A DNA stretch of 64,000 nucleotides from an uncultured Candidatus Saccharibacteria bacterium (GTDB lineage Bacteria > Patescibacteriota > Minisyncoccia > 2-02-FULL-40-12 > GWA2-44-9): NCBI GenBank assembly GCA_964491455.1, contig CAZBFM010000001.1, positions 3,053-67,052 of the forward strand, written 5' to 3'. A program made the translations under genes and the position numbers. Below are positions 5,280-50,891 of this stretch, piece after piece. The notes under the pieces were generated by a model, which was not told where the DNA came from, did no database searches, and saw only the letters and a list, made by a program, of their open reading frames with translations. The first letter of the stretch is position 1; each line of letters opens with the position of its first letter.

Positions 5280-5819
5280 ATGCCACGTTTACTCGACAAC
5301 TACCGAAAGACCGTCGCTCCCGCCCTGCGGAAGGAGTTTAGCATTGCCAATGTTATGGCGGTGCCAAAGATTTCCAAGATCACCGTCAACATCGGTGTGG
5401 GCAAGGCATCCAAGAATTCTGGTGCAGTCGAGAAGATCGAACGAGATCTCGCCATGATTACGGGACAGAAGCCATCTGCTCGCAAAGCGAAGAAGTCTAT
5501 TGCTAGCTTCAAGCTGCGTGAGGGTACGGTGGTTGGCTACACGGTCACCTTGCGTGGCACTCGTATGTGGGATTTCTTGGATCGATTTATGTCGTTGGCG
5601 CTTCCATTGTCACGTGACTTCCGCGGTATTGATGCGAAGAACTTTGATCGCGACGGTAACCTCAATATTGGTATTCGCGAGCACAGCATCTTCCCCGAGG
5701 TCAACCTTGAGAACGTCAAAGATATTTTTAGCCTCCAAGTAACCATCACAACCACCGCAGGAAATCGCGAGCAGGGAATTGTATTGCTCCGCGGCCTCGG
5801 TTTCCCTTTGAAGAAATAA
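5280..5819 (+). CDS. rplE: 50S ribosomal protein L5
   Basis: 179 aa; L5 signature. Confidence 0.95.
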
Positions 5820-5823
5820 TCAC

Positions 5824-6009
5824 ATGGCCAAGACTTCATCTACAGCACGCAGTAATAAGAAGCCAAAGTTCAGTACCCGCAAGGTGAACCGTTGTTTCCG
5901 TTGCGGTCGTTCACGCTTCTACATTGGCAAGGTTCAGTTGTGCCGTATTTGTTTCCGAGAGTTGGCCAATGATGGTTTGCTCCCCGGTATTCGTAAATCG
6001 TCTTGGTAA
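5824..6009 (+). CDS. rpsN: 30S ribosomal protein S14 type Z (zinc-binding, CxxC…CxxC)
   Basis: 61 aa; RCFRCGR…CRICFRE. Confidence 0.9.
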
Positions 6010-6023
6010 TATATTTTTGAACT

Positions 6024-6422
6024 ATGGACCCTATTTCTGACATGATGAATCGGATCAAGAACGCTCAGGCGGTAGATCATGAGCGCGTCTCGATCCCATT
6101 CTCCAACGTAAAGCTCCAGATCGCACAGATTCTTAGCGATGCAGGTTTTGTCGCGGGATTCGAGCGCACCAAGAAGAAGGCAAAGCGCGCAGAGCTCGAC
6201 TATATTGAGGTCGTACTCAAATACAACGCAGGCGAGGGTGCAATCTCTGGTCTTCGTATCATCAGCCGACCAAGCCGCCACATCTACATCAAGGCAAGTG
6301 AGATCAAGCCTGTGCGCTCGGGATACGGCTCCGCAATTGTTTCTACTTCCCAAGGCATCATGACATCACAGGCAGCACGCAAGGCTGGCTTGGGTGGAGA
6401 AGTACTGTTTGAAATCTGGTAA
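6024..6422 (+). CDS. rpsH: 30S ribosomal protein S8
   Basis: 132 aa; MDPISDMMNRIKNA…. Confidence 0.95.
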   Translation: MDPISDMMNRIKNAQAVDHERVSIPFSNVKLQIAQILSDAGFVAGFERTKKKAKRAELDYIEVVLKYNAGEGAISGLRIISRPSRHIYIKASEIKPVRSGYGSAIVSTSQGIMTSQAARKAGLGGEVLFEIW

Positions 6423-6464
6423 CGTTGGAGGCCAACAGAAATCCCCACTTTATTCCATACACTC

Positions 6465-7388: not shown

Positions 7389-8006
7389 ATGGATGAGAAC
7401 ACGATCAACAACCAGCCAGTAGCTCCCGTCGCTGCACCAGCAGGGGACGCACCAACAGCAGCAGAACCAATGCGCCCAATGCGCGGTGGCCGCTTTGGCA
7501 CACGCGGTGGCCGCACCGGAGCTGGTGGTCGCCCAGGTGGCCGCGGTCCTCGTCGCGATCGTCCAACAGAGAAGCCTGAATTTGATCAGAAGACCCTCGA
7601 AATCGCACGCGTTGCTCGCGTTACCAAGGGTGGAAAGCGCTTTAGCTTCCGCGCAACCGTCGTTGCCGGCAACGGCAAGGGCAAGGTTGGCATCGGTACG
7701 GCCAAGGGTCGCGATGTGCAGCAGTCCATCCAGAAGGCATACCATCAGGCAAAAAAGAACCTTACTCCTGTTATCACCAAAGACGGCACCATCCCATACC
7801 AGGTGGAAGGCAAGTACTCGAGCGCAACGGTTATCCTCAAGCCATCTAAGTCTGGTATTAAGGCAGGAGGAGCTGTTCGTGTCGTGGCACAGATGGCTGG
7901 AATCAGTGGATTGACTGGTAAGCTCACAGGCCGCACCAACAACAAGATCAACATCGCGCGCGCAACGATGCTCGCATTGTCCAAGATCCGAACCAAGACC
8001 AAATAA
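7389..8006 (+). CDS. rpsE: 30S ribosomal protein S5 (Arg/Gly-rich N-terminal extension)
   Basis: 205 aa; …VARVTKGGKRFSFRATVVAGNGKGKVG…. Confidence 0.9.
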   Translation: MDENTINNQPVAPVAAPAGDAPTAAEPMRPMRGGRFGTRGGRTGAGGRPGGRGPRRDRPTEKPEFDQKTLEIARVARVTKGGKRFSFRATVVAGNGKGKVGIGTAKGRDVQQSIQKAYHQAKKNLTPVITKDGTIPYQVEGKYSSATVILKPSKSGIKAGGAVRVVAQMAGISGLTGKLTGRTNNKINIARATMLALSKIRTKTK

Positions 8007-8016
8007 TTATTCACCC

Positions 8017-8493
8017 ATGCAGCTTTCTACTCTCAAAGCAAAACATCCCCGCAAGAGTCCAAAACGTATTGGACGCGGTGGAAAGCGCGGTACAACGTCC
8101 GGTAAGGGAACCAAAGGTCAGTCTTCACGTGCCGGTGCGAGCACTCGCGCAGGATTTCGTGGTGGCGACAACCGTATCTGGCAGTTGTTCCCCAAGCAGC
8201 GTGGTGCATCATCCAAGCCCGGCAACAAGAGCCCTCACCGCAAGCATCGCTACTATTCTATCCGCCGCTACAAGCCATGGGAGCTCAACCTCCGCGCGCT
8301 TGAAGTATTCAAGGATGGCGATGTCGTTTCTCTCGCATCGTTGATTGAAAAGAAAGTACTTCCTGAAGCAGCAACCGTGGTAAAGATTCTCGCCACCGGT
8401 GAGCTCAATCGCAAATTGTCATTCTCGGGTGTGCTCATGTCGGCAACGGCCCGTGCAAAGATCGAAAAAGCAGGCGGCACCATTCTCGAGTAA
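8017..8493 (+). CDS. rplO: 50S ribosomal protein L15
   Basis: 158 aa; starts 11 nt after rpsE stop, so no L30 gene lies between them. Confidence 0.9.
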   Translation: MQLSTLKAKHPRKSPKRIGRGGKRGTTSGKGTKGQSSRAGASTRAGFRGGDNRIWQLFPKQRGASSKPGNKSPHRKHRYYSIRRYKPWELNLRALEVFKDGDVVSLASLIEKKVLPEAATVVKILATGELNRKLSFSGVLMSATARAKIEKAGGTILE

Positions 8494-8542: not shown

Positions 8543-9802
8543 ATGAACATTATTTCTCAGATATTCCGTCGCCCAGAAATTCGCAACAAGGTGCTGTTCA
8601 TTCTTGCGTTGCTTGCCGTCGCGCAGCTCGCACACAGCATTCCTATTCCTGCTGTTGATACCACGAAGCTCCGTGACTTCATGAGCCAAAATGCGCTCTT
8701 CGGTTTGTATGGAACCTTCACCGGTGGCTCGCTTTCGACGTTGTCGATTGCAATGCTCGGTCTTGGACCTTACATCACCGCTAGCATCATCATGCAGTTG
8801 TTGACCATGATTTTTCCGTCACTTGAGCAGATGTACAAGTACGAAGGAGAGGCGGGTCGCACACGTTTTAATCAATTCAGTCGCTTACTTACCGTTCCGC
8901 TCGCCATGGTGCAGGGGTATGGTTTTTTGGCGATTCTCCAGCGACAAGATGTTATTGCTGGTCTCTCGGGTCTTCACATGCTTTCGTCGCTGATCATTAT
9001 CACCGCAGGTAGTGTGTTCTTGATGTGGCTCGGAGAGCTCATCACCGAGAAGAATCTTGGCAACGGAACCTCGCTGCTCATCTTGGCGGGTATCGTATCG
9101 CAGTTCCCACAGAGTATTCAGCAGGCGATCTTCACCTACACACCGGATCAGTTGTTTACCTACATCGCATTCGTGTTGGTCGGCCTAGCGGTCATCGCAG
9201 GCGTTGTCTTTATCTCCGAAGCTCAGCGCAATATCCCCATCAACTACGCACGTCGTGTCCGTGGCATGAAGCAGTACGGGGGAGTATCGACGTATCTTCC
9301 GATGCGCGTCAACAACGCCGGTGTGATTCCAATCATCTTCGCGCTTTCGCTCCTCTTGTTCCCTGGCATCATCGCCAACTTCTTGACCGCATCGAAGATC
9401 GTCTCGGTGGCTAAGGTTGCAACGATGGTGAGTCAGGTCCTTCAGAACCAGCTCGTCTACGGTATCTTCTACTTTGTATTGGTGGTCTTGTTCACGTATT
9501 TCTACACCGCCATCACCTTTGATCCCAAGAGTATCGCCGAAAACATCCAGAAGCAGGGAGGTTACATTCCTGGCATCCGCCCTGGTGCACAGACGACGCA
9601 GTTCTTACATCATCTCCTCAATCGAGTCACGCTCGTCGGTGCAATCTTCTTGGGCACTATTGCTGTCTTGCCAAATGTGGTCCAAGGATTCACTGGTATC
9701 ACTGCCTTCACAGTAGGAGGTACTTCGATCTTGATTGTAGTCTCCGTCGCTTTGGAAATCATGAAGCAAGTGCAGGCCCAGCTGTCGCTGTATGAGTATT
9801 AA
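8543..9802 (+). CDS. secY: preprotein translocase subunit SecY
   Basis: 419 aa, 10 TM-like segments, SecY motifs; follows rplO. Confidence 0.95.
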   Translation: MNIISQIFRRPEIRNKVLFILALLAVAQLAHSIPIPAVDTTKLRDFMSQNALFGLYGTFTGGSLSTLSIAMLGLGPYITASIIMQLLTMIFPSLEQMYKYEGEAGRTRFNQFSRLLTVPLAMVQGYGFLAILQRQDVIAGLSGLHMLSSLIIITAGSVFLMWLGELITEKNLGNGTSLLILAGIVSQFPQSIQQAIFTYTPDQLFTYIAFVLVGLAVIAGVVFISEAQRNIPINYARRVRGMKQYGGVSTYLPMRVNNAGVIPIIFALSLLLFPGIIANFLTASKIVSVAKVATMVSQVLQNQLVYGIFYFVLVVLFTYFYTAITFDPKSIAENIQKQGGYIPGIRPGAQTTQFLHHLLNRVTLVGAIFLGTIAVLPNVVQGFTGITAFTVGGTSILIVVSVALEIMKQVQAQLSLYEY

Positions 9803-9818
9803 GTAGCTCTCGCTCGAA

Positions 9819-9842
9819 AAGGCCCCGAAAGGGGCTTTTTTG
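9819..9842 (+). terminator. intrinsic terminator after secY (ggccccgaaaggggc + T-run)
   Basis: GC hairpin followed by 7 T. Confidence 0.6.
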
Positions 9843-9880
9843 GTGGAAAAATGGGGTTTGGAGGGGATATTGACAAAATG

Positions 9881-9911
9881 GTTTTAGTATGCTATCATGT
9901 ATCTACCAAGC
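9881..9911 (+). promoter_or_regulatory. sigma70-like promoter (TTGACA-N17-TATCAT)
   Basis: consensus -35 and near-consensus -10 about 50 nt upstream of AAGAAAGAGAGAG RBS and the ATG at 9964. Confidence 0.5.
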
Positions 9912-9963
9912 TCGGGTTAGGCATCCCGTCGAAACCCCTTGAAAACCAAGAAAGAGAGAGAGT

Positions 9964-10530
9964 ATGCTCACCGAAACCGCCGTTGTTGTGGCCCCGATCA
10001 CGGTCGCGCCTCTGCTCGTGGACACCAAGTGTGCCCGGCAGGAGTGCAGCGCCCGCATCGAGCGGGGATCCGGGTTCGTTCCCGAGCTCTCCCGTCTGTA
10101 TCGCGCCGTGCGCGGCACCGGCGTCGACCTCTCCGCCCCGCTCACGCGGGAGGAGGTCCTCAGCAAGGAGCTCTGTCATAAGTGCTCCAAGCTCGCTGCG
10201 TTCCGGACGTACCGGACGCAGGCGACGATCGCGTTCATGGAGCGGACTGTCGAGGATAACGAGTTCTACGCCGAGAAGCGTCGTCAGGCGCAGCTCGACT
10301 ACGCGGACATGCGGAACTCGCACCCCAAGAGCCCGGTGAGTCACATCGCCGAGGCCGCGGAGCGGGCCCGTCGTCAGGCGGTGACGCACCACAAGCGTGG
10401 GAAGCGTTTGCCCGCTGCGGAGCGCCGGCGTCTCGCGGAAACGCGGGCGTCGCGCCCCTTCGCTTCCATCAAGCCCGAAAAGAAGGGCAAGAAGAAGGAG
10501 CAGGGCGGCGGCAAGAAGGGTCGCAAGTAG
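9964..10530 (+). CDS. hypothetical protein; high-GC (about 65%) gene with four Cys (CxxxxC…CxxC) and a Lys-rich tail; likely horizontally acquired
   Basis: 188-aa ORF with own promoter and RBS; GC3-rich codon usage unlike flanking r-protein genes. Confidence 0.5.
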   Translation: MLTETAVVVAPITVAPLLVDTKCARQECSARIERGSGFVPELSRLYRAVRGTGVDLSAPLTREEVLSKELCHKCSKLAAFRTYRTQATIAFMERTVEDNEFYAEKRRQAQLDYADMRNSHPKSPVSHIAEAAERARRQAVTHHKRGKRLPAAERRRLAETRASRPFASIKPEKKGKKKEQGGGKKGRK

Positions 10531-10650
10531 TCTTCAAAAGCCGGGGGCAGGCGCGAAAGCCCTGCACCTCTCACTGCCACTGGCGGTGGGTACGAGCTGA
10601 TGTGTTCGTAGGCGCACCACTTGTCGTCAAGAAATACCTGGTACCAAGAA

Positions 10651-10849
10651 AGGCAATAATGCTGCAGTCCTAGAGTGCTGAGGGGTGCTCGACCAAAGGA
10701 AGGGCCCAAAAGCTCACCACCCTCGCGTATCTCGCCGTAAACTGCAGTCGGCCATGCGGCCAGAGAGAGGCAATAGTGCTTATAGAAAAGAGCGCGAGGG
10801 GCGCTCGAAAAAAAGGAAGGGGGGCTCCGGCCCATTACCCACCACCCTC
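10651..10849 (+). repeat. two tandem imperfect copies (about 75-80 nt each, 10651-10724 and 10768-10849) of a structured element (candidate ncRNA or leader), upstream of adk
   Basis: units share aggcaataRtgct…agagYgcKgaggggYgctcga…ggaaggg…caccaccctc; internal stem (gagcgc/gcgctc) with compensatory GU changes between copies. Confidence 0.4.
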
Positions 10850-10852
10850 ACA

Positions 10853-10882
10853 GGGGGAGTCTACGGGCTCCCCCTTTTTTTG
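10853..10882 (+). terminator. intrinsic terminator (gggggagtctacgggctccccc + T7)
   Basis: hairpin plus T-run immediately after the tandem repeat. Confidence 0.55.
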
Positions 10883-11008
10883 TCTTGTATAAGACAAATC
10901 AAAATACCCAGAGGAGCCGCGGCTTTGCAGCTTGGCGACGTGGGGTTTTTCATATATCTGAGTTTCATTTTTTATACTGCGTGCTACGATGCACTCATGG
11001 AGGGAAAC

Positions 11009-11698
11009 ATGAACAAGCAAGTAGTGATTCTTGTTGGTCCACCGGGATCGGGTAAAGACACGCAAGCCGAGCGGCTCGTGCAAGAGTTTGGATTTGTGCA
11101 GGTGCCAAGCTCACGCATTATCCGTGCCAAGTTTGCGGAGAATCCGAATGATCCAGTGATTCAAGAAGAGAGGCGTAAATTCGATGCAGGCCTTCTCAAT
11201 GATCCGTTGCTCGTTGGAGAGTGGATCATGGAGTTCGTTCGTCCACTTGCGGAAGCAGAGAAGAGCTTGGTGTTTTCTGGCTCACCTCGTACGCCGCATG
11301 AAGCGCAAGTCGAGTACCAGGCGATCGTCGATCTGTATGGGCGAGAGCATGTTGTGCTCATCTACTTGGACATTGATATACAGGAGGCGAGTCGCCGTAT
11401 CGCAGGGCGACGCTTCTGCCAGTTGCATGGGCATGTCATTTCGGGAGCACCCGAGTTTGCTTATTTGGTGGTGTGTCCGCAAGATGGAAGTGCATTAGCA
11501 GCACGAGAACTTGATGATGCATCGCTCATTCCAACGCGGTACCACGAGTTCAATACGCTGACGCTTCCTGTTGTTGAGATTGCGGCAACATTTGCAATTG
11601 CCACGTTTCATCTCGACGGCAAAAAGACTATCGAGGGCGTGCATCACGATATTGCCGAGATTGTGGAGCGGCGTCATGCGCCTGTGTCAGAGCAGTAG
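11009..11698 (+). CDS. adk: adenylate kinase
   Basis: MNKQVVILVGPPGSGKDTQAERL… P-loop; GGAGGG RBS; canonical position after secY. Confidence 0.9.
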   Translation: MNKQVVILVGPPGSGKDTQAERLVQEFGFVQVPSSRIIRAKFAENPNDPVIQEERRKFDAGLLNDPLLVGEWIMEFVRPLAEAEKSLVFSGSPRTPHEAQVEYQAIVDLYGREHVVLIYLDIDIQEASRRIAGRRFCQLHGHVISGAPEFAYLVVCPQDGSALAARELDDASLIPTRYHEFNTLTLPVVEIAATFAIATFHLDGKKTIEGVHHDIAEIVERRHAPVSEQ

Positions 11699-12138: not shown

Positions 12139-12897
12139 ATGGTCACCCTGAAGACACCACAACAGATTGAAGCGATTCGTGCTGGCGGCAAAATCCTTGC
12201 CGCCATTTTGCGTGACCTGGCCGCGATGGCGAAGCCCGGCATGCAGACTAAGGAGTTGTCTGCACGAGCAGCACAACTTATCAAAGAGTCGGGTGCGAAA
12301 CCGAGCTTCTTGGGCTACAACAAATATCCCGACGTCATCTGTCTGTCGGTCAATCACCAGGCAGTGCACACTCCAGGGTCAGCATATGCATTACAAGACG
12401 GTGATTTGCTCAAGCTTGATTTTGGCATTGTAGTAGACGGCATGCATAGCGACTCGGCGATTACCGTACTGGTCGCGCATGATCCGAAAGCGCCAGAGCA
12501 TCAGAAGAAGCGACAGCTCATGCAGGTCACGAAAGAAGCGCTCGACAAAGGCATCGCGCAGTGTCGCGTGGGTAACACGCTTGGCGACATCGGAGCAGCA
12601 GTGCAGCAGCACGTCGAAAAAAATGGATTCACCATCGTGCGAGAGTTGGGTGGGCATGGCATCGGTACCAAGCTCCACGAAGAGCCGTGGGTTGCGAATT
12701 TTGGCAAAGCGGGGGACGGCATGAAGCTCGAAGCTGGCATGGTGCTCGCTCTTGAGCCAATCACCTGCATGGGCAAGTGGCAGATCAAAGACGGCGCCGA
12801 TGGTTTCACCTATGATATGAAAGACGGATCGCTCTCTGCTCACTTCGAACACTCAGTGGCGATCACTGAAGCTGGTCCGGATATATTGACGAGATAA
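12139..12897 (+). CDS. map: methionine aminopeptidase type I
   Basis: 252 aa; MetAP fold motifs (…DFGIVVDGMHSDSA…HGIGTKLHEEP…). Confidence 0.9.
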   Translation: MVTLKTPQQIEAIRAGGKILAAILRDLAAMAKPGMQTKELSARAAQLIKESGAKPSFLGYNKYPDVICLSVNHQAVHTPGSAYALQDGDLLKLDFGIVVDGMHSDSAITVLVAHDPKAPEHQKKRQLMQVTKEALDKGIAQCRVGNTLGDIGAAVQQHVEKNGFTIVRELGGHGIGTKLHEEPWVANFGKAGDGMKLEAGMVLALEPITCMGKWQIKDGADGFTYDMKDGSLSAHFEHSVAITEAGPDILTR

Positions 12898-13484: not shown

Positions 13485-16655
<3,171 letters not shown>

Positions 16656-16749
16656 TGTTGTCGGAGATCCCTTATAAAATCAAGTTCAGATGCAGTGATA
16701 TATGGTGCGATTTATTACCCGTAAGAAAACCGAAGCTGTTGTGGCTTTC

Positions 16750-16863
16750 GGTAAGGTGGCATTGCCACGAGTGCTCCACCCGTTCCCATCTCGAACACGG
16801 AAGTGAAATCTCGTAGGGCCCATGATAGTCGTTTACTCGGCGAAAGTAGGTCGCCGCCTTACC
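16750..16863 (+). rRNA. rrf: 5S ribosomal RNA
   Basis: ccacccgttcccatctcgaacacggaagtgaaat…; terminal helix ggtaagg/ccttacc. Confidence 0.85.
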
Positions 16864-37858: not shown

Positions 37859-38946
37859 CCGACGAGGACTTCGACGACGTCACCATCTTGGACGACGTAG
37901 TCTTTGCCGACCACACGCACGAGTCCTTTCTGGCGCGCTACACCGTAGCCGCCGCATTCGAGGAGTTGGTTGCAAGGTATGACTTCAGCGCGAATGAAGA
38001 GGCGTTCAAAGTCGGTGTGAATGGCGCGCGATGCACGGGGCATCAGATCGCCACGATGACAGGTCCACGCGCGCGTCTCGTCGGGTCCCGTGGTCAAAAA
38101 CGAAATGAGACCAAGCGTATGGTACGCCTCGCGAATGAGGCGATCCAGCCCACTCTCGGGAAGTCCGAGCTCGGTGAGAAAGCCCGCTTTTTCCTCGCGC
38201 GACATTTCTGAGAGCTCAAGTTCGAGCTTGTTGCACATAGCCACGTATTCAGAGCCATTCATCGCCGCGAGGAGCTCGGGTGATGGTTTCCAGTCCGAGG
38301 CGAGTTGAGAATCGGACACGTTGATGACGTAGATAAACTTCTTTGCCGTCAGGAGGCTCAATTCTTTGGCCAGCGCCTGTTCGTCGTCAGAAAGCTCGAG
38401 TTGACTGATGAGCGAGCCACGCTGAAGTGCGTCGGCGAGCTTCTGAAGAAGGGGGATCTGCTCACGAATAATTTTGTCGTTGCGTGCCTTGGCTTCTGAG
38501 GTGACGATACGCTTGGAGACGGTGTCTAGATCGGCGATGATGAGCTCGGCGTTGATAATGCCGATGTCCCGGATAGGATCCACGGTCTCGTGGACGTGAA
38601 TGATGTCGCCGCCATCGAATGCACGCACGACTTGTGCGATTGCATCGACTTCACGGATGTTGGCGAGGAACTTGTTTCCCAGTCCTTCTCCTTGGCTAGC
38701 ACCTTTGACGAGGCCTGCGATGTCGGTGAATTCGATGGTCGCATATATTTGCTTTGCGGATTTTGAGAGCTCAGCCAGTTTTCCGATGCGTTCATCGGGT
38801 ACCTCAACCACGCCGACATTGGGCTCAATGGTTGTGAAGGGGTAGTTTTGGATGTCGATCTGTTTGTTGGTGACAGCCTTAAAGAGTGTGGATTTGCCCA
38901 CATTGGGAAGGCCGACGATACCGATCGCTAGTTTTGTACTCGACAT
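37852..38946 (-). CDS. ychF: ribosome-binding ATPase YchF (Obg-family GTPase)
   Basis: MSSTKLAIGIVGLPNVGKSTLF…FTTIEPNVGVV…; TGS C-terminal domain. Confidence 0.9.
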   Translation of the reverse strand: MSSTKLAIGIVGLPNVGKSTLFKAVTNKQIDIQNYPFTTIEPNVGVVEVPDERIGKLAELSKSAKQIYATIEFTDIAGLVKGASQGEGLGNKFLANIREVDAIAQVVRAFDGGDIIHVHETVDPIRDIGIINAELIIADLDTVSKRIVTSEAKARNDKIIREQIPLLQKLADALQRGSLISQLELSDDEQALAKELSLLTAKKFIYVINVSDSQLASDWKPSPELLAAMNGSEYVAMCNKLELELSEMSREEKAGFLTELGLPESGLDRLIREAYHTLGLISFLTTGPDETRAWTCHRGDLMPRASRAIHTDFERLFIRAEVIPCNQLLECGGYGVARQKGLVRVVGKDYVVQDGDVVEVLVGK

Positions 38947-40558
38947 AATTTGATGGTATTGGCAGGTAACCAGATACTTCCAACCGTTCCTGGGTAGCTA
39001 CAACTTTATCTAAAACGTTTAATATTATGCCTCTTTTTGCGTCGAAACTCAAGTTGCTGAGACTTTTCGATGCTTTCATCGCGAATGCCTTCATTTGTTC
39101 ATTGCTGGGCAATCCATCAAATCCCATTTGGTTTCCATTTCGCTTTGCAGTCTCCGCCTGTGTCTCAAGAGATGCGATCTGGGCCCTGAGCGGTACGGTG
39201 TATTCCTTTAGTTGTTCCATGGTGAACAAGCCAGCCCCGTATGCCTTGCTGTAGCGCTCCTCCTGGATCTTTAACTTTTCGATTTCCTTTTGGATAACCT
39301 CTAAGTCACCAATTGATGATTTTGATTTGCCTTGTTGTGCGCGTATCCAGCGTTTAACCTGGGCCAACATTAACTCGGGAGAACTCATCAGGCTGGAGAC
39401 TTTCTTCCATACTAAATCATCAGCGATCCTGGCGTTTACCCCTTTTTCTTGGCATCGAGGTGGAAGGGGGAAGCTATAGATCCTATCACTGCACCGATAG
39501 TAGAGATGTTTTCCGTGTTGAGGCCCCTCTCCATGCCTTTTGATCCCACATGTGCAGTAAATTCTGCCACCCAGGAGATACTCATTCTTTTTATTTCGAT
39601 CACAGAGCGCGAAGTTGCTATCAAGTTGTTTACGGGCCCGTGCAAATAATTCTGGCTCAATGATTGCAGGGACGGGAATGTTGGATGCGATCCATTCTTC
39701 TTCTGGTTTTTGTTTGCGACTGCTCTTCTTCATCTTGCGGTACTTCTCTGTGTTGGTCGGATTTTCTGGAATAACAGCATACGAGCTACCCCAATGGGCC
39801 TGTCCAATATAGGCCTTGTTCCTGAGTAGAGTGCTCAGCGTAGAAGTACTCCAGACGCCACGCTTACTCTTTCGGGGACGGATGTCGAGTTCTTGTAGCC
39901 TCCTCACAACCTTTCTTATTGTGAAAGCTTCGTCGGCAATCCATTCAAAGATCATTTTGATGACGCGAGCTTCTGCTGGGTTGATTTCATAATACCCATG
40001 AGTTTTTACTCCATTCGCTTCTCGTTGGTTGGGCACGTATGTGTAGCCATAGAGGGCTTCGCTCACGAGAATATGCCCATCTCGTACTTTCCTAAGTTTT
40101 CCTAAGCGGAAGCGCTCAGAGATTTTTGCTCGTTCATATTCAGCAAACAGACCACGTACTCCGTGAAGGATTTTATCTTCAGGATTTTTGGGAGCAGTAA
40201 CCGTGACGAAAATTACCTCAATTCCTCCCTCCTTTAACTCATCCATTACCAACTCCTGATATGAGTATCGGCGGGCAAGGCGATCTGGGTCATAAATCAG
40301 GACGGCTTCCCAGAGTTTCGCTTTGGCATCCTGACGCAGTTGATCCAGGGCGGGTCGCGCAAGCACATCTCCACTCCAGCCGTCATCGGTATATTCACGG
40401 ACAATAGTATAGCCGTTCTTGGTAGCGAACTCACGCAGAGTGTTGAGTTGGATTTGGATGGTCTGCTCCTCTTCCTGTCGCGATGTCGATACTCGCGCGT
40501 AGATTGATATGAGTTTTGTCATGTTGTTTGGCATCTTCTTGGCGGAGTACTTCTTCAA
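38879..40558 (-). CDS. large serine recombinase (resolvase catalytic domain, recombinase domain, zinc ribbon, coiled coil)
   Basis: …ISIYARVSTSRQ… catalytic Ser; CTCGIKRHG…YYRC zinc ribbon; 3' end overlaps ychF start by 67 nt. Confidence 0.9.
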   Translation of the reverse strand: MKKYSAKKMPNNMTKLISIYARVSTSRQEEEQTIQIQLNTLREFATKNGYTIVREYTDDGWSGDVLARPALDQLRQDAKAKLWEAVLIYDPDRLARRYSYQELVMDELKEGGIEVIFVTVTAPKNPEDKILHGVRGLFAEYERAKISERFRLGKLRKVRDGHILVSEALYGYTYVPNQREANGVKTHGYYEINPAEARVIKMIFEWIADEAFTIRKVVRRLQELDIRPRKSKRGVWSTSTLSTLLRNKAYIGQAHWGSSYAVIPENPTNTEKYRKMKKSSRKQKPEEEWIASNIPVPAIIEPELFARARKQLDSNFALCDRNKKNEYLLGGRIYCTCGIKRHGEGPQHGKHLYYRCSDRIYSFPLPPRCQEKGVNARIADDLVWKKVSSLMSSPELMLAQVKRWIRAQQGKSKSSIGDLEVIQKEIEKLKIQEERYSKAYGAGLFTMEQLKEYTVPLRAQIASLETQAETAKRNGNQMGFDGLPSNEQMKAFAMKASKSLSNLSFDAKRGIILNVLDKVVATQERLEVSGYLPIPSNYVEYKTSDRYRRPSQCGQIHTL

Positions 40559-40723
40559 AGAGGAGATCGAATGCCCTATCTACTGCATCCGAAGGGGCAC
40601 TTATCGGCTCATAGCACAAAGAGGGACAACGAAGTGATGCTTTGTTGCTACACAAAAGCGTTCGTTGCCCCTCTTCAAGTTCGAGGTTATCGGCATCATA
40701 TTCACTTTTGTGTAGCAAGTCCA

Positions 40724-41335
40724 TTATACTCTTTTTCGCTTATTAAGTCGCGAGAACATCCCATAACTCAGGGTTGCGCGCCGATAAAGCGTCTCTAATT
40801 TCCTCTGCTTTTTTGTTGGTCGGCCAGCATAGTAGGGGCGTTTGATCTGTTGGCTCAGTTTTTCGATCTTGTCTTCGATGCGGATTGCGTCGAAAAGGGG
40901 AGCGTATGAGAAGTTGCGGTTTTCATTTCGCGAGTTGTAGGTCAGGTTGTAACAATGGCGACAGGCAAAATAGTCACCGTCTTTGTACAAGACTCCCACT
41001 CGTCGGCCGCAGTACACGCCACCTTTGTACCAAGGGCATTGGAACCAATATCGCTTCCCTCCATAACGGCACGGAGTTGTAACGAGAGGGATCTGGTAGT
41101 CAAACTCCTTTTTCTCGCCATCCGAGTCGGTTTGTGTGTAGTGGAAGCGTGCATGGCTTTGTCCTTGCATGGTTGCAACAACGATGCCTATGCTGCTTTT
41201 ATCACCCCATGCGCTTGTCCACTCGATCGTTCCAGATCTCCAGCCACAAAAATACTGGTGCCTCCTGAGAAAGCTCACCGATACTTTTTTTAGGCCATCT
41301 GCCTCTGTTTTTCCTCCATAACTCCATCGTCCCAT
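40724..41335 (-). CDS. hypothetical Cys-rich protein (putative zinc finger), island-borne
   Basis: 203 aa; multiple CxxC pairs (CRYGGKRYWFQCPW…CRHCYN). Confidence 0.45.
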   Translation of the reverse strand: MGRWSYGGKTEADGLKKVSVSFLRRHQYFCGWRSGTIEWTSAWGDKSSIGIVVATMQGQSHARFHYTQTDSDGEKKEFDYQIPLVTTPCRYGGKRYWFQCPWYKGGVYCGRRVGVLYKDGDYFACRHCYNLTYNSRNENRNFSYAPLFDAIRIEDKIEKLSQQIKRPYYAGRPTKKQRKLETLYRRATLSYGMFSRLNKRKRV

Positions 41336-41467
41336 GGTGGTATCTGTTATTTACCGAAATCATTTGAGATTGCGGGGGTCGTTTTTCACTAAACGATTGT
41401 ATTTCCTTGATTTTTACAATGAGTTTTCGGACATTTCCGACAACCATAATGTTAACTTTTGTTAACC

Positions 41468-43672
41468 TCAGAAGGGCAGTTCGGTGCCCTGATCTTGCCC
41501 TGTTTCCTCGTCATCCTGTTGGGTCACGTTAGTAGTTACCCCACCCTGCGTATCACTATATTCAGTGCCATCCGAAAGCTGCTTTGGGGAGGATGGGTAA
41601 ATCAACATCTTGCGTTTATCCGACGGGTCCTGCTCCTGGATAATGAGGCCCGCCGTTTCCAGCATTGGCAGGATTTGTTGGCGAAGTTGGTTGGAGTTCA
41701 GTATTCGGCCATACACTGTTAAATGCTTATCCAGCACCTCTTGTCGCGTAAGACCAGCTTTGCTCGCCAGGAGCGTGTAATCGGTGCCCTGGCCCGCGTT
41801 TTTGGCGTTCCAGAGGGGTACGATGACCTCGGTATAGAGGTTATAGATATAGGGTGGCAGGTTGAGTTCTTGGCTAACTGCGATTTTCTCCCAGAGTTTA
41901 AATGCGGCATCGATGTCAGCATCGTTGGCGGTGATCGTTGAGCCGCTACGCTCTCGCCACCACACATTGAGAAGTGCGAACGATTTGACGATCGACAGGA
42001 GGCGCTTGATGTCTCGCTGGTGGCGTGGCTTGAGTGTCTTGTTGTCGCGCAAATACTTCTCTTGGATGCGGTCTTTGGATGCGATGTTGATGTCTTTGAT
42101 CTTCTCCAGCTTGATAGCGTGGATGCGCTTTTTTAGGAGCATGCGATCGGGATTTTCCTCGAGCCAACTCACGAAGTCTTTGCTATTAGCTTCTTTACTG
42201 ATGATCGCACTGATGCTTTGCTGGATTTTCTCTTGATTGACTTCGGGCGAGAGAAGCAGAAAGCGGGTCGCCTCTTGTTCATCAATTTTCAGGCCTGCAG
42301 TGCAGAAAATAACGGAGGGGAAGCCACGCAAAAGAATATTCTTCGTTTTGAGACCAGCTTTCTGGGACTTATCAGTAATCTTGAGGGTGATCTCCTTTTT
42401 GTCGTGCGAAAGGAGGGGGCGAAGACGGGCCAAGAGTTCGTTGTGGGGCATGTCCAAGAAGATGAGGATCTTGTTGGATAGATCGACGAGGTACTGGTTC
42501 TTTTCTTTATCGTACTGCCCCGCATCGTGGAAGAAGGCGGTGGGGCTACAGTAAGCGATTTCCATGACATCATCCTGCGGGAAGAGACGAGCGATTTCAG
42601 TGGGAATATAACTCTTACCCGTTGAGCTTGGTGCGTTATAACTAATATTAAATTGGCTGTTTTCGGTGTACGCCGAGAGCTCACAAAGGAATGTGGCGAG
42701 CTTGTTTTCGGCATCGTATTTGATGGTCAGCCCCAGTGTCTCGATGAGTTGATCGGCAGTAAGCGGTTGGAACTGAGAGGTATCAATCCGTTCTGGGTAA
42801 GGCTTAGCATATTTGTCGAACAGGTCTTCGCCAATACCATTGAGGCTTGTGAAGTAATCGGTGATGTCGCCATGCTCTCCGACTTCCGTTGGCAGCGTGA
42901 TGAGGTGCGTTTCACGTCCACCATTGTCCACCATTTCGGCGACTCGTGACGCCCCTTTTCGGCCCGCTTCGTCATTATCGAAGCAAACGTAAATAGCTTT
43001 GATTGTTTGATTTTTAATCAGTTTTTCAACCCATTCATCTTTGAAGGTTCCAGCGCCGTGGGTTGAAGTAATGGCGGGGATACCATGAGTCACCAAAAGC
43101 AGACGATCCAGTTCTCCTTCGCAGATTACCAGGCGATCGTGAGCTTCTTCGAGTGTAGTCCAGTCATATAGCTGAGCCTGAGCACCCTTGGGATAGGTGA
43201 TCTTGTCATCGCCCATGACTGGATCTTGGCGCAGTTTGAAAAACGAGTAATTGCCAAAGGCATCCTTGATAGGGATAGTAATCCAGGATTTGCGGTAATA
43301 ATGACCATAACCGATCTTATATGTATCGATGATGGCATCAGAAAGACCGCGCTTGTGAAGGTACTCGCGAATGTGTGGAGGAAGAGCTCGGTGGCAATTT
43401 TCTACAGTTTCGGCATTGAAGACTTGTATCTTGCGCGGGCGCGTTAAGGTGTCTCCAAAATGCTTGGCCAGAGTGACCAGATTACCGCGTTCACCGCATT
43501 TCTTGCAGTCGTATTGGCCTGTTTCAGCATTGAAATACAGGTGGGCCTCGTTGCGTCGGCTGTCTTCATCGCATCCATTGAATACACAGTGAGTGATGAG
43601 CTCATTGCCGTGCTCGCGAAATTCAATGCCTTTCTGTGTCAGATAATCACGGATAGTAATAGTATGTGTCAT
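41468..43672 (-). CDS. DNA primase (CHC2 zinc finger plus TOPRIM) fused to P-loop NTPase (D5/SF3-like), mobile-element replication protein
   Basis: N-terminal HCxFxxC…CxxCG zinc finger; TOPRIM ICEGELD…CFDNDEAG; Walker A APSSTGKS; C-terminal wHTH. Confidence 0.75.
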   Translation of the reverse strand: MTHTITIRDYLTQKGIEFREHGNELITHCVFNGCDEDSRRNEAHLYFNAETGQYDCKKCGERGNLVTLAKHFGDTLTRPRKIQVFNAETVENCHRALPPHIREYLHKRGLSDAIIDTYKIGYGHYYRKSWITIPIKDAFGNYSFFKLRQDPVMGDDKITYPKGAQAQLYDWTTLEEAHDRLVICEGELDRLLLVTHGIPAITSTHGAGTFKDEWVEKLIKNQTIKAIYVCFDNDEAGRKGASRVAEMVDNGGRETHLITLPTEVGEHGDITDYFTSLNGIGEDLFDKYAKPYPERIDTSQFQPLTADQLIETLGLTIKYDAENKLATFLCELSAYTENSQFNISYNAPSSTGKSYIPTEIARLFPQDDVMEIAYCSPTAFFHDAGQYDKEKNQYLVDLSNKILIFLDMPHNELLARLRPLLSHDKKEITLKITDKSQKAGLKTKNILLRGFPSVIFCTAGLKIDEQEATRFLLLSPEVNQEKIQQSISAIISKEANSKDFVSWLEENPDRMLLKKRIHAIKLEKIKDINIASKDRIQEKYLRDNKTLKPRHQRDIKRLLSIVKSFALLNVWWRERSGSTITANDADIDAAFKLWEKIAVSQELNLPPYIYNLYTEVIVPLWNAKNAGQGTDYTLLASKAGLTRQEVLDKHLTVYGRILNSNQLRQQILPMLETAGLIIQEQDPSDKRKMLIYPSSPKQLSDGTEYSDTQGGVTTNVTQQDDEETGQDQGTELPF

Positions 43673-43684
43673 GTTGGGTAATAG

Positions 43685-43972
43685 TTATTCTGAGTACAGC
43701 TGATTTTTGAGAGCCTTAATGGTGTCGAAGAAGGCCCGTGCCTTTACGGTAAGTTGATCCAGGAAGTATTGATTTGCACGATCTTCAATTCCATCCTGTC
43801 TTTTGAAGATAAACAGGGCCTTTCGGGGGTCGTCTTTGTTCAGCGATAGTAGTTCGAAGCCACTGCACGCGAGGGCAGCGCTAACGCCGAGGTCATAGGT
43901 CGTGAAGACCAGTGATGGGTCATCTAACGGTATATACTGATATTCCTTGGGCCGACTTTTATTTTTGGGCAT
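43685..43972 (-). CDS. hypothetical small protein (island-borne)
   Basis: 95 aa ORF directly upstream of primase on same strand. Confidence 0.4.
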   Translation of the reverse strand: MPKNKSRPKEYQYIPLDDPSLVFTTYDLGVSAALACSGFELLSLNKDDPRKALFIFKRQDGIEDRANQYFLDQLTVKARAFFDTIKALKNQLYSE

Positions 43973-44119
43973 TGTAATGGGGTGATATTTTAATTGATGA
44001 GAGATCGACCATGACCCTCGCTATATGTGCTGAAAGGTCAGCGCAAGAAAAAACCTTGTCGTAAAACAAGGCTTTTCTCGGCTTGATTGGCCAAATAAAC
44101 CTCCTGATTTTTCAGGAGG

Positions 44120-46405
44120 CTATTCCTCTGAGTCGTCTATGGCGAGCTGATTCTCGTTGAGCCTACCTCCCTGTCGCCAAATGTCATTTTGTCGCAAACC
44201 TGGTACTGGTAATAATTTGAATTTAGGATCGTAATAATCGCTTCTTGCGTGGAACGGATCATCGTCCGTTTTGAAGATAGAGCGCATGCTTTTTACAAGT
44301 AATCGTTTAATCTGGTATACATTTCCCAATTTTAGGGAGATGTTTGATCTTGCAGCAACCATACGCGTCATTTGCTGCGCTGTAGCGGTGTGAATATCGG
44401 TTGCGGCGAGCGCAGATAGTGCCTCTAGGAAATTCCATTCACGAGTTGGTTTTTGCTGTTTTTTACCCCTGGAGAACCCTAGCTGTACGTAATCTGGGGC
44501 GGCGATGTATTTCCCGTCGTAATAGATCTCAATCTCTTTGGCTCCTTCTTTAAATTTAATTTCAACTTTCTCGAATTTAACTACCTCGGGGAAGACGAGG
44601 TCAATTGAGTGTCGCTTTTTTACCGCGCGCCTGATGCCGAATATTTCTGGCGGAGATGCTATGGGTATGAGCGCGTTGCCAGGTACAATGTAGTAGTCTT
44701 GCGACTCTGGTTTGGTCGTTTTCTGAGCACGCGCTTCCGCTTTATCTTGAGGTTTCCGCGGTTGGCGTTTGAGTAAGTATGGTGAGAGATTTCCCTTAAT
44801 CTCATCTCGTTGGATGTGTACATCAGTTCTTCGTTGGTGCAGATAATATCCAATGAGGTTCATTTCTGGTGACGTTGCATTGAGTGCATTTTCGATATGG
44901 CCCTGGATGACAGGACTCCTCAAGCCATCAAATGTGTTGAGCAAGAAGAAAGAGTAAAGGGACTTTTCTACTCCACTGCTCGCTTCTTTCATTGATCGCT
45001 TAACGAGCTCAATGTCTATGTCCTGTTCTCGAATGGCTTTATGGTATAGGGCAACAACCTTGAAGATTGTTGTTTCCTTCTCACTCAGGATACGGTCGAT
45101 TTCCTGGTCTAGCTCACCAATGATGATGCTTTTGTTTGACGCTAGCAGTTTGAGTATCCAGAATTTCGACCAGTCGGTGACCTCACTGTTATTGTACGCT
45201 TCCCAAAGTGCGCTATCGATGGTTATGGCATCGAGTGGGTCGCCAAAAATATCGAGCATTACCATAGAGTCGGCAATGTATTGAATGATTGGCACTGTCA
45301 GTGAGGGTCGGATCGGGATGATCTTGATAAGGTCAAGGATCAAATTAAGGTTGAAGATTACGCTGGCCTTCAGATAGTACTTAAGACCGCGAATTTCTAG
45401 CTTCTCAACCTTTTCACCGCTGATTATTGCACCGATGATTCGGGGGATTGTGGCGGTGATACGCGCAAAATCGTCCTCGGGTATTTCGGGGGTGCTGTAG
45501 TCATAATCGGAGCTGATGCGCATGGCCTCAATCGCTTCAGTATCCTGAAGCTCGGTAACTTTTGTTTTCTCGTTGAGATTTAGGTTGTGACCTCGAAGAA
45601 AGCGTACTATTTTTTCTGTCGCTTTGAGCACATCTTCTTTGCTCCTGCCCATCAGCACAAGATCGTCCACGTATCGTAGATAGCGGAAGTTTTTCCCAGC
45701 CAGTTCTTCTTCGATATATTCATCAAGAGACGCAAGATATGCATTAGCGAGAACCGCTGATGGGCCAGGGCCTTGGGGCAATCCTTTTGGTAGGTCAGGA
45801 AACTCGGTCCATGTTCTCAGTTGTGTGTCGAGTATGGATAGAATTTTTTCATCCTTAATGCCAAAGTCGTTTTTGATTTTCTCCATTAACTTTCCGATTG
45901 GGATATGCTCGTAATATTGCTGAACATCAACCTCCAACTTCCAGACCAGCCCCTTTTCAAATGCTTTCTTTTGCCCTTCGCAGAACTTATCCCAATCATT
46001 GAAATATGGGGCGATAAAGGCTGGTGTTTCTGCATTATCATGAACTCGATTACCAAAACAGCTTTTGTCGGAGAGCTGATTGTCGATTTTGTATCCAAGG
46101 ATTTCTTGGTTGAAGATGGCTTGGAATACGATTCGATCGATCATCGACATTACGTAGACGGGCCGAAGGGCTAGATTGTCTTTAGGTATGTAAACGAAGA
46201 ACCCCTTTTCGGGGGCATAATTACCGTCTCGGATCTGTTTCTCTAGGGCAACAAAGAATTCGCCACCAAGGGCATCAATGGCAGTAGTGGCAGGATGATT
46301 AATTGGGTTTACGGAAAGTGTCGAGTGTGAGAGCTCGTGTTGAACGTGTGTGTATGCCAGCTTTAGGTTTTCTCGCGATGAGAACCGCTCAAAAAGAGTC
46401 GCCAT
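44120..46405 (-). CDS. reverse transcriptase, Abi/UG (defence-associated RT)-like, with about 450-aa helical C-terminal extension
   Basis: RT motifs: …LRPVYVMSMIDRIVFQA…; GLPQGPGPSAVLANAYL; YVDD (RYVDDLVLMG); 761 aa; no intron/retron context; neighbours are R-M and nuclease genes. Confidence 0.8.
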   Translation of the reverse strand: MATLFERFSSRENLKLAYTHVQHELSHSTLSVNPINHPATTAIDALGGEFFVALEKQIRDGNYAPEKGFFVYIPKDNLALRPVYVMSMIDRIVFQAIFNQEILGYKIDNQLSDKSCFGNRVHDNAETPAFIAPYFNDWDKFCEGQKKAFEKGLVWKLEVDVQQYYEHIPIGKLMEKIKNDFGIKDEKILSILDTQLRTWTEFPDLPKGLPQGPGPSAVLANAYLASLDEYIEEELAGKNFRYLRYVDDLVLMGRSKEDVLKATEKIVRFLRGHNLNLNEKTKVTELQDTEAIEAMRISSDYDYSTPEIPEDDFARITATIPRIIGAIISGEKVEKLEIRGLKYYLKASVIFNLNLILDLIKIIPIRPSLTVPIIQYIADSMVMLDIFGDPLDAITIDSALWEAYNNSEVTDWSKFWILKLLASNKSIIIGELDQEIDRILSEKETTIFKVVALYHKAIREQDIDIELVKRSMKEASSGVEKSLYSFFLLNTFDGLRSPVIQGHIENALNATSPEMNLIGYYLHQRRTDVHIQRDEIKGNLSPYLLKRQPRKPQDKAEARAQKTTKPESQDYYIVPGNALIPIASPPEIFGIRRAVKKRHSIDLVFPEVVKFEKVEIKFKEGAKEIEIYYDGKYIAAPDYVQLGFSRGKKQQKPTREWNFLEALSALAATDIHTATAQQMTRMVAARSNISLKLGNVYQIKRLLVKSMRSIFKTDDDPFHARSDYYDPKFKLLPVPGLRQNDIWRQGGRLNENQLAIDDSEE

Positions 46406-46700
46406 AGTAATAGTAATGTTGGTGGCATCCTACTCCCCAAGAGGGCTTATATCAAGGTATCGATGAGGCTTCCAATTAACCATCAATAGTGGTAATTTAT
46501 GCTTAACAATTTATCGCCTAACCCTTGTGAGCTTGTTGTCACAAGATATGGCGAAAAAATCCCCATCCCTGATACTGAACCCCTCGTTCAGCGCACTCAG
46601 GGATGGGTCATGCCCGAAAGGGTATGTGAGTCGCAAGACTCAACGCTAGCGGGGGGCTTTGTGTTTCCCGTTTGCGACATAGGTTTTACCCATCCCTACT

Positions 46701-48651: not shown

Positions 48652-48720
48652 CAGAAGACCAGTCGATGAGTGTCATAAAGCCTTGTTATTGTTCGATTTT
48701 TATAATAAAATCCCTCGGTT

Positions 48721-49467: not shown

Positions 49468-49476
49468 AATCAAGCA

Positions 49477-49508
49477 AAAGGGGCCCCTTGCGGGGCCCCT
49501 AAGCTTTA
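49477..49508 (+). terminator. hairpin terminator (aggggccccttgcggggcccct)
   Basis: 10-bp GC stem; weak T-run. Confidence 0.45.
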
Positions 49509-50425: not shown

Positions 50426-50487
50426 GTCCTTGGACCTGGTTCCTTAGGCCCCGTTGGCCTCTGAACCTTAGTCCTTCGACCCCGTTC

Positions 50488-50528
50488 GATGCCCTGTGTG
50501 CGAAAGCGCATGGGGCATCTTTTTTTGT
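50488..50528 (+). terminator. hairpin (gatgccc…ggggcatc) plus T7 downstream of VR1
   Basis: inverted repeat plus T-run. Confidence 0.5.
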
Positions 50529-50762
50529 GCTAAAATTAAATTGGAATTAGGCGAATATGCGGGCGACTACGGTTTCCTGCTGCCGAACCCAGTATCCATA
50601 CAACCCAGAATATCTCCGACTACGGTTTGAGGTAGCGTGGTGTATGTAGAAACTTCAAAAAATGAAGATACTTGGTAGGGGGTGCTATAGCATTGCGATG
50701 CCGAATACGATACAGCCCTGAGAGTACTCGAAGGGCAGTGGCACGGAAGGCACTCACTACAC

Positions 50763-50885: not shown

Positions 50886-50891
50886 CTCTCC

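Follow-up and report, generated by a model that had tools for sequence, protein, structure and literature searches.

A GC-rich gene between secY and adk keeps its deviant composition as a long-term resident of a Patescibacteria clade

Is a gene that looks foreign a newcomer? The question is raised by a 64,000-nucleotide stretch of DNA (hereafter the window; positions 3,053 to 67,052 of the forward strand of contig CAZBFM010000001.1, assembly GCA_964491455.1) from an uncultured Candidatus Saccharibacteria bacterium. Between secY and adk it carries a GC-rich open reading frame (ORF) of 188 codons, here called gene X. A preliminary description of the window had taken X for a foreign gene inserted into the conserved secY-adk junction. 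We find that X is an addition to the canonical junction, as claimed, and that it is neither recent nor unique, the same slot being occupied in relatives. Its high GC content is a maintained state and not that of a fading import. The joint explanation that we favour, with little more than even confidence, is that X is a clade-resident unit whose GC content is maintained by a locus-specific bias and which encodes an abundant nucleic-acid-binding protein.

The genes that frame the question are the following (coordinates are those of the window).

7389-8006: S5, end of the ribosomal-protein cluster at the start of the window
8017-8493: L15, in the ribosomal-protein cluster, upstream of secY
8543-9802, plus strand: secY, 419 amino acids (Pfam SecY, E=7e-103), last gene of the ribosomal-protein operon segment
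9964-10530, plus strand: gene X, 188-amino-acid ORF between secY and adk
11009-11698, plus strand: adk, 229 amino acids (Pfam ADK, E=3e-15)
12139-12897, plus strand: map, methionine aminopeptidase (Pfam Peptidase_M24, E=1e-46)

The Pfam matches confirm the conserved neighbours on both sides of the gap, which measures 1206 nt and holds X. The order S5-L15-secY ... adk-map retains that of the canonical end of the spc operon (rplO-secY-adk-map). The difference is that a 1.2-kb autonomous transcription unit here parts secY from adk, with a predicted terminator for secY and a predicted promoter for adk.

The GC-rich block of about 700 nt reported earlier at 9850-10560 has a GC content of 63.2%, and the ORF itself reaches 67.0%, against a window mean of 51.1%. 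Among all 567-nt segments of the 64 kb, X is the GC maximum (0.675, z=4.7); the only other stretch of at least 0.60 is the target gene of a diversity-generating retroelement (DGR) near 50 kb. GC at the third positions of codons (GC3) is 0.857 in X and 0.52-0.64 in the host, and GC at first positions (GC1) and the amino-acid composition, rich in Ala and Arg, are shifted too. The codon table of X is unlike that of ribosomal-protein and housekeeping genes. The ribosomal-protein genes of the window favour GCA (0.51), CCA (0.56) and GGT (0.41) and rarely use CGG (0.02), whereas in X GCA and CCA are absent, CGG reaches 0.42, and AAG and CAG are used exclusively. The strong deviation from the host in GC, GC3 and codon usage is thus real. 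Since the codons favoured by ribosomal-protein genes are avoided in X, its bias is not one of translational optimization towards host-optimal codons.

We recovered 13 genomic contexts of X, the window's own locus included; the recovered loci of relatives are designated by L-numbers. X lies in the secY-adk slot in 11 of the 13.

secY-X-adk-map: L001, L011, L012, L014, L095
X-adk-map: L003, L010, L097
secY-X, where the contig ends: L007
C-terminus of secY, then X-adk-map: L096
exception, L013: X between L21 and tRNA-Glu/SMC
exception, L008/L009: X on short contigs of 64% GC

At least 11 independent assemblies thus share the gene and its position, with X proteins 31-83% identical to that of the window, and X was found in this slot in every recovered relative whose SecY is at least 82% identical. 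The NCBI labels of these records conflict (Saccharibacteria, Paceibacterota, Yanofskybacteria, 'Patescibacteria group'); we treated them as one Patescibacteria clade because the SecY proteins of the X-carrying relatives are 82-99% identical to the window's. An hmmsearch on all ORFs of 80 metagenomic loci with SecY 48-76% identical detected no X. In most of those in which adk was recovered, it begins no more than about 120 nt after the secY stop or overlaps it, in agreement with the earlier statement that adk normally lies right behind secY. In several of the closest loci without X (about 70-76% SecY identity) the gap is filled by unrelated small ORFs, membrane proteins among them. The synteny comparison that had been proposed therefore separates carriers (SecY at least 82% identical) from non-carriers (76% or less) and shows that X was gained in the ancestor of the former. 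Because X occupies the slot in the carriers and is missing from the 80 relatives, it is a clade-specific gain. In this group the secY-adk junction repeatedly takes up accessory genes, so the insertion is not the one-off breach of an inviolable operon that had made it seem unusual, and X is a long-term resident of the slot.

The small genes in and around the slot form a varied company. L033 (58% SecY identity) has a HicB/HicA-like pair in the secY-adk gap at 5326-5819, L077 has two small gap genes with raised GC3 (0.78 and 0.82) at 979-2093, and L093 gives a further small-ORF example at 5539-6427. Within the X clade, X is joined in several genomes by small proteins ending in ...AIEAYELGK (family A), in some cases as tandem copies; in the low-GC locus L095 the A gene has strongly raised GC3 (0.76 vs 0.38).

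Family A, L012: 5965-6810
Family A, L095: 1910-2326
Family A, L014: 12410-13214
Family A, L008: 2-157

Another family of the clade (Y), with a DxGQYD motif followed by a membrane helix, comes after X in L007, L008 and L097. The small ORFs around X differ between genomes, and tblastn (E<=0.01) detected no remnants of such accompanying genes in the window.

Is the composition of X fading or maintained? X GC3 exceeded the GC3 of the flanking housekeeping genes in 12 of 12 loci (0.70-0.95 vs 0.38-0.74); in the host with the lowest GC3 (0.38), X stands at 0.70. The two values are correlated (Pearson r=0.80, p=0.002), and after logit transformation they give a slope of 1.09 and an offset of 1.4±0.4, in a sample of 12 phylogenetically non-independent loci of which the window's, L001 and L003 are close. 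We polarized third-position changes among the latter three, using codons with unchanged first two bases. In X, 20 changes ran from GC to AT and 13 from AT to GC, and 24 were GC-to-GC. The ratio of about 5:1 that is expected for a GC3 of 0.86 relaxing to about 0.55 was rejected (p=0.0016) and 1:1 was retained (p=0.30) in this test of 33 changes only. Polarized changes in adk and map were balanced, as for genes at equilibrium. Such an excess is rare: an offset above 1.0 logit occurred in 7 of 806 ORFs (at least 100 amino acids; window and loci of at least 4 kb), and 5 of the 7 are X.

Since silent changes are near equilibrium and X GC3 equals host GC3 plus about 1.4 logit, we conclude that the composition of X is maintained. 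X follows the background of each host like a long-term resident, with a roughly constant extra push towards GC. The relatives do carry the gene, and everywhere with the same non-native composition, not with the native one that had been considered earlier; the recent import implied by the words 'foreign gene' does not agree with silent sites that are at equilibrium instead of ameliorating, nor with the lack of a donor outside the clade in our searches. The small number of polarized changes and the relatedness of the loci limit the statistics and weigh against this conclusion, as does the ability of X to occupy other sites, seen in L013 and L008/L009.

Outside the X and A families, a single ORF among the 806 has an offset above 1.0 logit, a 150-amino-acid putative membrane protein in L060 (4089-4538; GC3 0.71 vs a locus median of 0.35).

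What does X encode? The protein has 188 amino acids and an isoelectric point (pI) of 10.3, with four Cys in two pairs (C23/C28 and C71/C74) and the basic tail KKGKKKEQGGGKKGRK, all as described before. A word-indexed search of 5.8 billion clusters returned four proteins, one identical and the others 86%, 78% and 42% identical, and a profile of those four retrieved 45 proteins at E<=1e-3 from 1.84 billion representatives. All 45 have 140-236 amino acids and one common architecture: a variable N-terminus rich in Ala, Val and Pro, a four-Cys domain, three helices and a polybasic tail. In an alignment of 37 sequences C23, V39, P59 and C71 are invariant and C28, G37, Y46, R50, L60, E64, E69, M92 and N99 nearly so; at least 90% of members have C28, and most of the 37 have C74. 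After the core motif GxGFVPxLxxLYxxxRG...PLTRxEVLSxExCxxC come TxxTLxLMExWAxxN, a charged helical stretch and the Lys/Gly-rich tail; a second tail type in the wider family reads PNAPKKYGDE. Family pI is 9.2-10.8 and the net charge of the last 30 residues +5 to +12. The Cys pairs and the polybasic tail, pointed out beforehand as meaningful traits, are thus conserved across the family.

The C-terminal motif RLPAAERRRLAETRASRPFA is unchanged in the 42%-identical homologue with several codons differing synonymously, and this identity despite synonymous changes indicates selection at the protein level in the frame of X. The overlapping ORFs of 162 amino acids (plus strand) and 165 amino acids (minus strand) are therefore by-products of high GC. 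X truly codes for a protein, and its family is uncharacterized and limited to one Patescibacteria (Saccharibacteria-like) clade of ultra-small bacteria.

The homology search that had been proposed thus found a family of about 45 clusters and no known family or fold. X had no Pfam match, and its 37 family members none above noise; PHROGs, NCBIfam and PADLOC gave no match; PDB sequences searched with the X profile returned noise only (E>1). No homologue outside the family occurred in the 1.84 billion representatives, and tblastn against phage and plasmid collections and a scan of IMG/VR detected no relatives. A literature search on this gene and on Patescibacteria-specific ribosomal proteins found nothing relevant. 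The AlphaFold2 (AF2) model from the deep alignment has a mean predicted local distance difference test (pLDDT) score of 83, rising to 97-98 over residues 20-110; a four-sequence model (pLDDT 54) was not used. The deep model contains three short strands, small helices, helices 85-119, 124-143 and 151-162, and a disordered tail. It puts C23/C28 between strands 20-22 and 31-33, and C71/C74 where helix 72-77 begins. Foldseek of this model against PDB and BFVD returned nothing below E=1. Judged by the model, X represents a new, uncharacterized protein family and fold.

X also appears to be expressed on its own. The gap contains, in order, a terminator hairpin of secY, the X promoter, a leader of about 60 nt, X, a 3' region of 345 nt with a terminator, and a promoter-like site and leader of adk.

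9816-9841, plus strand: intrinsic-terminator-like hairpin of secY, GGCCCC-GAAA-GGGGC then T6, read from the sequence
9870-9898, plus strand: X promoter, TTGACA-N17-TATCAT, 11/12 matches, TG extended -10
9914-9945, plus strand: 5' leader hairpin, GGGTT...AACCC, then a TTGAAAA box and a purine-rich stretch resembling a Shine-Dalgarno site
10531-10640, plus strand: GC-rich hairpin block directly after the X stop, fold z=-2.25
10641-10851, plus strand: tandem RNA motif, two copies, spacing 117 nt, repeat family D3
10852-10882, plus strand: intrinsic terminator of the X unit, 10-bp stem with 7 GC pairs, T7 tail
10949-11008, plus strand: adk promoter-like site (9/12 match) and leader, …TGCTACGATGCACTCATGGAGGG…

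The near-consensus promoter noticed earlier was confirmed. Three promoter-like sites occur in the region against a mean of 0.4 in shuffled sequences, and a promoter of the type TTGACA-N17/18-TGnTA(T/C/A)AAT precedes X in 10 of 10 other loci with upstream sequence. The secY-terminator hairpin also precedes the X promoter in L007 and L011. Nine of ten leaders have a hairpin of 8-12 bp at the same position, with differing stem sequences, followed by (G)TTGAAAA and a Shine-Dalgarno site. Individually the folding z-scores are modest (-0.8 to -4.6); taken over the loci, the pattern points to a leader structure kept through sequence change.

On the 3' side, the block 10531-10640 is near-identical in the window, L001 and L003 although the synonymous divergence (dS) of the flanking genes is 0.3-1.4, and the stretch 3' of X is arguably functional since the silent sites of those genes are less conserved. 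By eye the block resembles the 5' end of the Y gene, a likeness that tblastn did not detect. The RNA motif behind it is composed of a hairpin (GAGCGC-GAGGG-GCGCTC), AAGGAAGGG, a second hairpin and CCACCACCCTC, with compensatory changes in two of the six P1 pairs. Its GAGGG loop is complementary to a downstream CCCTC, and a pseudoknot between them is possible. The motif occurs twice in the window and L001, once in L003, L012 and L005, only downstream of X and with a terminator after it; the terminator of L012 is a compensatory variant (GAGGGAG...CTCCCTC). The motif is missing from L010, L011 and L014, which carry X. Rfam at permissive thresholds over 9780-11100 gave nothing significant (best E=4.2). 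We considered an adk riboswitch formed by motif and terminator and rejected it, given the adk promoter and leader downstream and the three loci without the motif; the leader TACGATGC..CATGGAGG is kept before adk in L010 and L014, both of which lack the 3' motif. The motif is better read as a 3'-untranslated-region (3'-UTR) element or a 3'-derived small RNA. As far as these elements can be read from the sequence, X is a self-contained unit between the secY terminator and the adk promoter, with promoter, leader hairpin, ORF, structured 3' region and terminator.

A conserved non-coding block, …CTGGAGGGGCCTCG.GA.TACACTCGCACCCTTCCAG… with a terminator-like hairpin, lies between secY and the X promoter in L001 (7704-7900) and L007 (4726-4900). 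It is common to L001, L003 and L007 and deleted in the window.

Which process keeps X GC-rich? Most likely, a locus-specific fixation bias towards GC would be behind its composition. GC-biased gene conversion (gBGC) at a recombination hotspot would be our first choice because the slot appears to be a hotspot of recombination and gene turnover, with selection at the mRNA level a close second. Lassalle et al. 2015 (PMC4450053) found non-optimal GC-ending codons over-represented in recombining bacterial genes and ascribed this to gBGC; X, in a mosaic region, is likewise rich in GC-ending non-optimal codons. In X the effect differs in being confined to a single gene, very large (about 1.4 logit, +0.2-0.3 GC3) and strand-asymmetric. 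Several observations count against gBGC as the cause. At four-fold degenerate sites pooled over 13 loci, X has A 3.8%, C 46%, G 36% and T 14%, and the flanks A 15%, C 33%, G 30% and T 23%, so that A is down fourfold and T 1.6-fold, whereas gBGC predicts symmetric depletion. The rise in GC hugs the ORF boundaries fairly closely; with 51% GC in the 5' leader and 59% in the 3' region, the strand-symmetric depletion reaching into the flanks is not what is seen. The shift is also far above the gene-to-gene effects usually credited to bacterial gBGC.

Because of the A/T asymmetry and the confinement of the GC rise to the vicinity of the ORF, some selection at the transcript level is suggested. As a full explanation, such selection would avoid A-ending and partly T-ending codons, either because a GC-rich structured mRNA resists AU-directed RNases or because non-optimal codons throttle the translation of a basic protein that is strongly transcribed and could do harm. 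Besides the asymmetry of silent sites on the sense strand and the coincidence of the GC rise with the ORF, it would account for the avoidance of exactly those codons that ribosomal-protein genes favour, and the consensus promoter, conserved leader hairpin and structured 3' region would suit it. The shift also in GC1 and in the Ala/Arg-rich composition, however, suggests that every position is under pressure, and the 3' region folds with a modest z-score (-2.25). We consider this explanation on its own rather unlikely, while taking it seriously.

How X diverges bears on a further explanation. Against close relatives, the ratio of nonsynonymous to synonymous divergence (dN/dS) is 0.27-0.31 in X and 0.02-0.06 in its neighbours, with X dS (0.54-0.76) similar to the neighbours'; the X protein thus diverges about ten times faster. 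SecY of L001, L007, L011, L012 and L014 is 98.8, 93.6, 94.0, 82.1 and 83.5% identical to the window's, and X 75, 41, 37, 36 and 31%, respectively. The rankings broadly agree, as expected for mostly vertical descent with a far faster X. Between the window and L001, identity along the locus is 96-100% in ribosomal-protein genes (L15 100%), 85-98% in secY, 69-81% in X, 91-93% in the 3' non-coding region, 71-83% in adk and 87-92% in map, and dS goes from 0.009 (L15) to 1.43 (adk) within 5 kb. Which of L001 and L003 is nearer to the window changes from gene to gene, in a set with too few close sequences for PHI or rho. The pattern reads as a mosaic produced by recombination, divergence being highest at X-adk.

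This mosaic would also fit an ancient gain followed by repeated allele replacement, in which the X cassette was re-imported through the conserved secY and adk flanks, GC-rich lineages such as those of L008/L009 included. X of the window and L007 are only 41% identical though their SecY proteins are 94% identical; the neighbours of X in the GC-rich context of L008/L009 are also GC3-rich (0.83-0.87); and the accessory ORFs around X vary, X standing beside a tRNA at another site in L013. A common GC-rich pool would not be expected to yield an X GC3 that scales with host GC3 with a slope of about 1, X identity declines in roughly the order of SecY, and no mobility genes were found. We regard repeated replacement as unlikely, a shade more so than transcript-level selection.

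With respect to function, X is most likely an abundant zinc-stabilized nucleic-acid-binding protein, judging from composition and predicted architecture. The four Cys would hold zinc, probably in a treble-clef-like arrangement of knuckle plus helix; this is how we read the placement of the pairs on a knuckle and at a helix N-terminus. The Lys/Gly-rich tail after the long helices would contact RNA or DNA, and the ribosome, the nucleoid or the conserved UTRs of X itself would be candidate partners. Zinc-ribbon and treble-clef basic proteins (bL36, uS14, bL31; DksA/TraR) resemble X in their two Cys pairs, small size and high pI, in the predicted position of the pairs at knuckle and helix N-terminus and, for DksA, in the long helices. 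They differ from it in that X has no sequence or structure similarity to them, a C-x4-C ... 42 residues ... C-x2-C spacing, and a domain order unlike that of DksA. The tails of chlamydial Hc1 and histone H1-like proteins and the C-terminal domain of mycobacterial HupB are comparable in being Lys/Gly-rich, of low complexity and conserved in composition; X has no homology to them, and its folded part is unrelated to HU or H1 folds. Weighing against the proposed function, X matched no nucleic-acid-binding protein in homology or structure, and C74, one of the four putative zinc ligands, is absent from a few family members. The first 20 residues lack a basic n-region and are acidic to neutral, so that a Sec signal peptide is unlikely. 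A translation-arrest peptide, considered for the C-terminal motif and the neighbourhood of secY, was set aside in view of the well-folded conserved body and a motif that is not family-wide.

X might instead be a clade-specific ribosomal or ribosome-associated protein, whence its place in the ribosomal-protein/secY cluster. The position between secY and adk, the small basic protein (pI 10.3) whose four-Cys motif and basic tail recall several zinc-ribbon ribosomal proteins, and the strong predicted promoter would agree with this. However, terminator, own promoter and own terminator insulate X from the operon, its rate of evolution is about ten times that of its neighbours, its codon usage is opposite to that of ribosomal-protein genes, it is absent from sister lineages, it matched no PDB ribosomal chain in sequence or fold, and unrelated genes such as the HicAB-like pair occupy the same slot. 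A ribosomal role is possible but disfavoured, and we think it improbable.

Recent horizontal acquisition would mean that a gene from a high-GC donor entered the secY-adk gap in recent times and is yet to ameliorate. This is the reading to which a GC of 67% and GC3 of 0.86 in a window of 51% GC, a codon usage like that of a high-GC genome (CGG 0.42, no GCA or CCA), the predicted promoter and terminators, and the absence from more distant relatives would lead. In these traits, and in a slot shared with other accessory genes, X resembles horizontally acquired islets. It differs from them in being kept in place across the clade without mobility genes or flanking repeats, and in a deviation that is stationary and scaled to host GC3 rather than decaying. 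The gene, its slot and its anomaly recur in relatives down to 31% X identity, dS of X among close relatives (0.5-0.8) resembles that of the neighbours, and silent changes are at equilibrium and not 5:1 towards AT, with GC3 following the host. Searches of 15 billion proteins, phages, plasmids and IMG/VR gave no donor. The window's locus has no integrase, no att-like flanking repeats and no called tRNA; nor was a tRNA found at the X slot in L001, L011, L012 and L014, tRNA-Glu following X only in L013. Recent acquisition is largely refuted and in our judgement very unlikely. An artefact, be it the chimeric assembly considered earlier or a non-coding GC-rich RNA with an accidental ORF among the several frames that GC-rich DNA leaves open, is already refuted by the occurrence of the same junctions in independent NCBI, ENA, JGI and Logan assemblies, protein-level conservation with synonymous turnover, a deep family with a high-confidence predicted fold, and the lack of an Rfam match, and deserves practically no credence.

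The second GC-rich gene of the window belongs to a complete DGR, near which lie another reverse transcriptase (RT) and further putative mobile or defence genes.

38879-40558, minus strand: large serine recombinase
41468-43672, minus strand: Toprim/primase-like protein
44120-46405, minus strand: second, larger RT gene, 761 amino acids (RVT_1, E=1e-14)
46515-46642, plus strand: LOOT RNA (Rfam RF03000), 77.8 bits, 110 nt from the start of the 761-amino-acid RT
46701-48651: probable methyltransferase/restriction pair
49835-52286: complete DGR
49835-50425: DGR target gene, 196 amino acids, with the variable repeat (VR) 50298-50420 at its C-terminus
50763-50885: template repeat (TR) of the DGR
51279-52286: DGR RT gene (Pfam RVT_1, E=2e-21)

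Of the 23 TR/VR mismatches, 22 fall on TR adenines. The DGR target has its own putative promoter (TTGACT-N17-TATAAT) near 49641 and a terminator near 50490-50525. It is the only other gene of the window with an X-like composition (GC3 0.856; A 3, C 65, G 23 and T 10 at four-fold sites). A paralogue at 53313-53771, which shares the motif IDCDADP..GW, has an ordinary GC3 of 0.595, and the adjoining RT gene one of 0.515. The 761-amino-acid RT and the LOOT RNA suggest an RT with a partner non-coding RNA. The stretch at about 38900-49500, next to the DGR, has a lower GC content (0.45-0.47) and probably represents an integrated element, either mobile or for defence.

X and the DGR target may share a transcript-directed, strand-specific process that removes adenines, an idea to which we give very little weight. 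Such a process may be the occasional RT-mediated retro-conversion of whole mRNAs by resident adenine-mutagenic RTs. The depletion of A on the sense strand, the fast evolution of X and the two RT genes in the window are compatible with it. If it were true, X would be hyper-evolving by mechanism rather than through relaxed selection.

The conserved neighbours of X show peculiarities of their own. S5 is followed by L15 with no intervening L30, which agrees with the reported lack of L30 in the candidate phyla radiation. The Gly/Arg-rich N-terminal extension of S5 (7389-7700) forms a local GC peak (0.645), and S5 is 27 residues longer than in the otherwise near-identical L001. Directly after map come 23S rRNA (3171 nt vs a model of 2925 positions) and 5S rRNA (13486-16862). 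The 16S rRNA is not in the window, and the customary infA-rpmJ-rpsM-rpsK-rpoA stretch after map is missing. The region of L011 that matches the post-map stretch of the window contains LAGLIDADG homing-endonuclease genes.

New in these results are the protein family and fold, the conserved UTR structures, and a persistent, host-scaled and strand-asymmetric GC3 excess that is only partly explained so far. The lineage-specific biology of Patescibacteria is almost entirely uncharacterized, and X gives it a confidently predicted fold without known relatives beside the ribosomal-protein cluster. Atypical GC content and codon usage are routinely read as signs of recent transfer; in X the same signature is kept at equilibrium in a clade-wide resident, which makes the gene a clean natural case for telling 'foreign' from 'locally biased' composition. 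X could also serve to measure gene-specific fixation bias, be it gBGC or selection at the mRNA level, in bacteria with reduced genomes.

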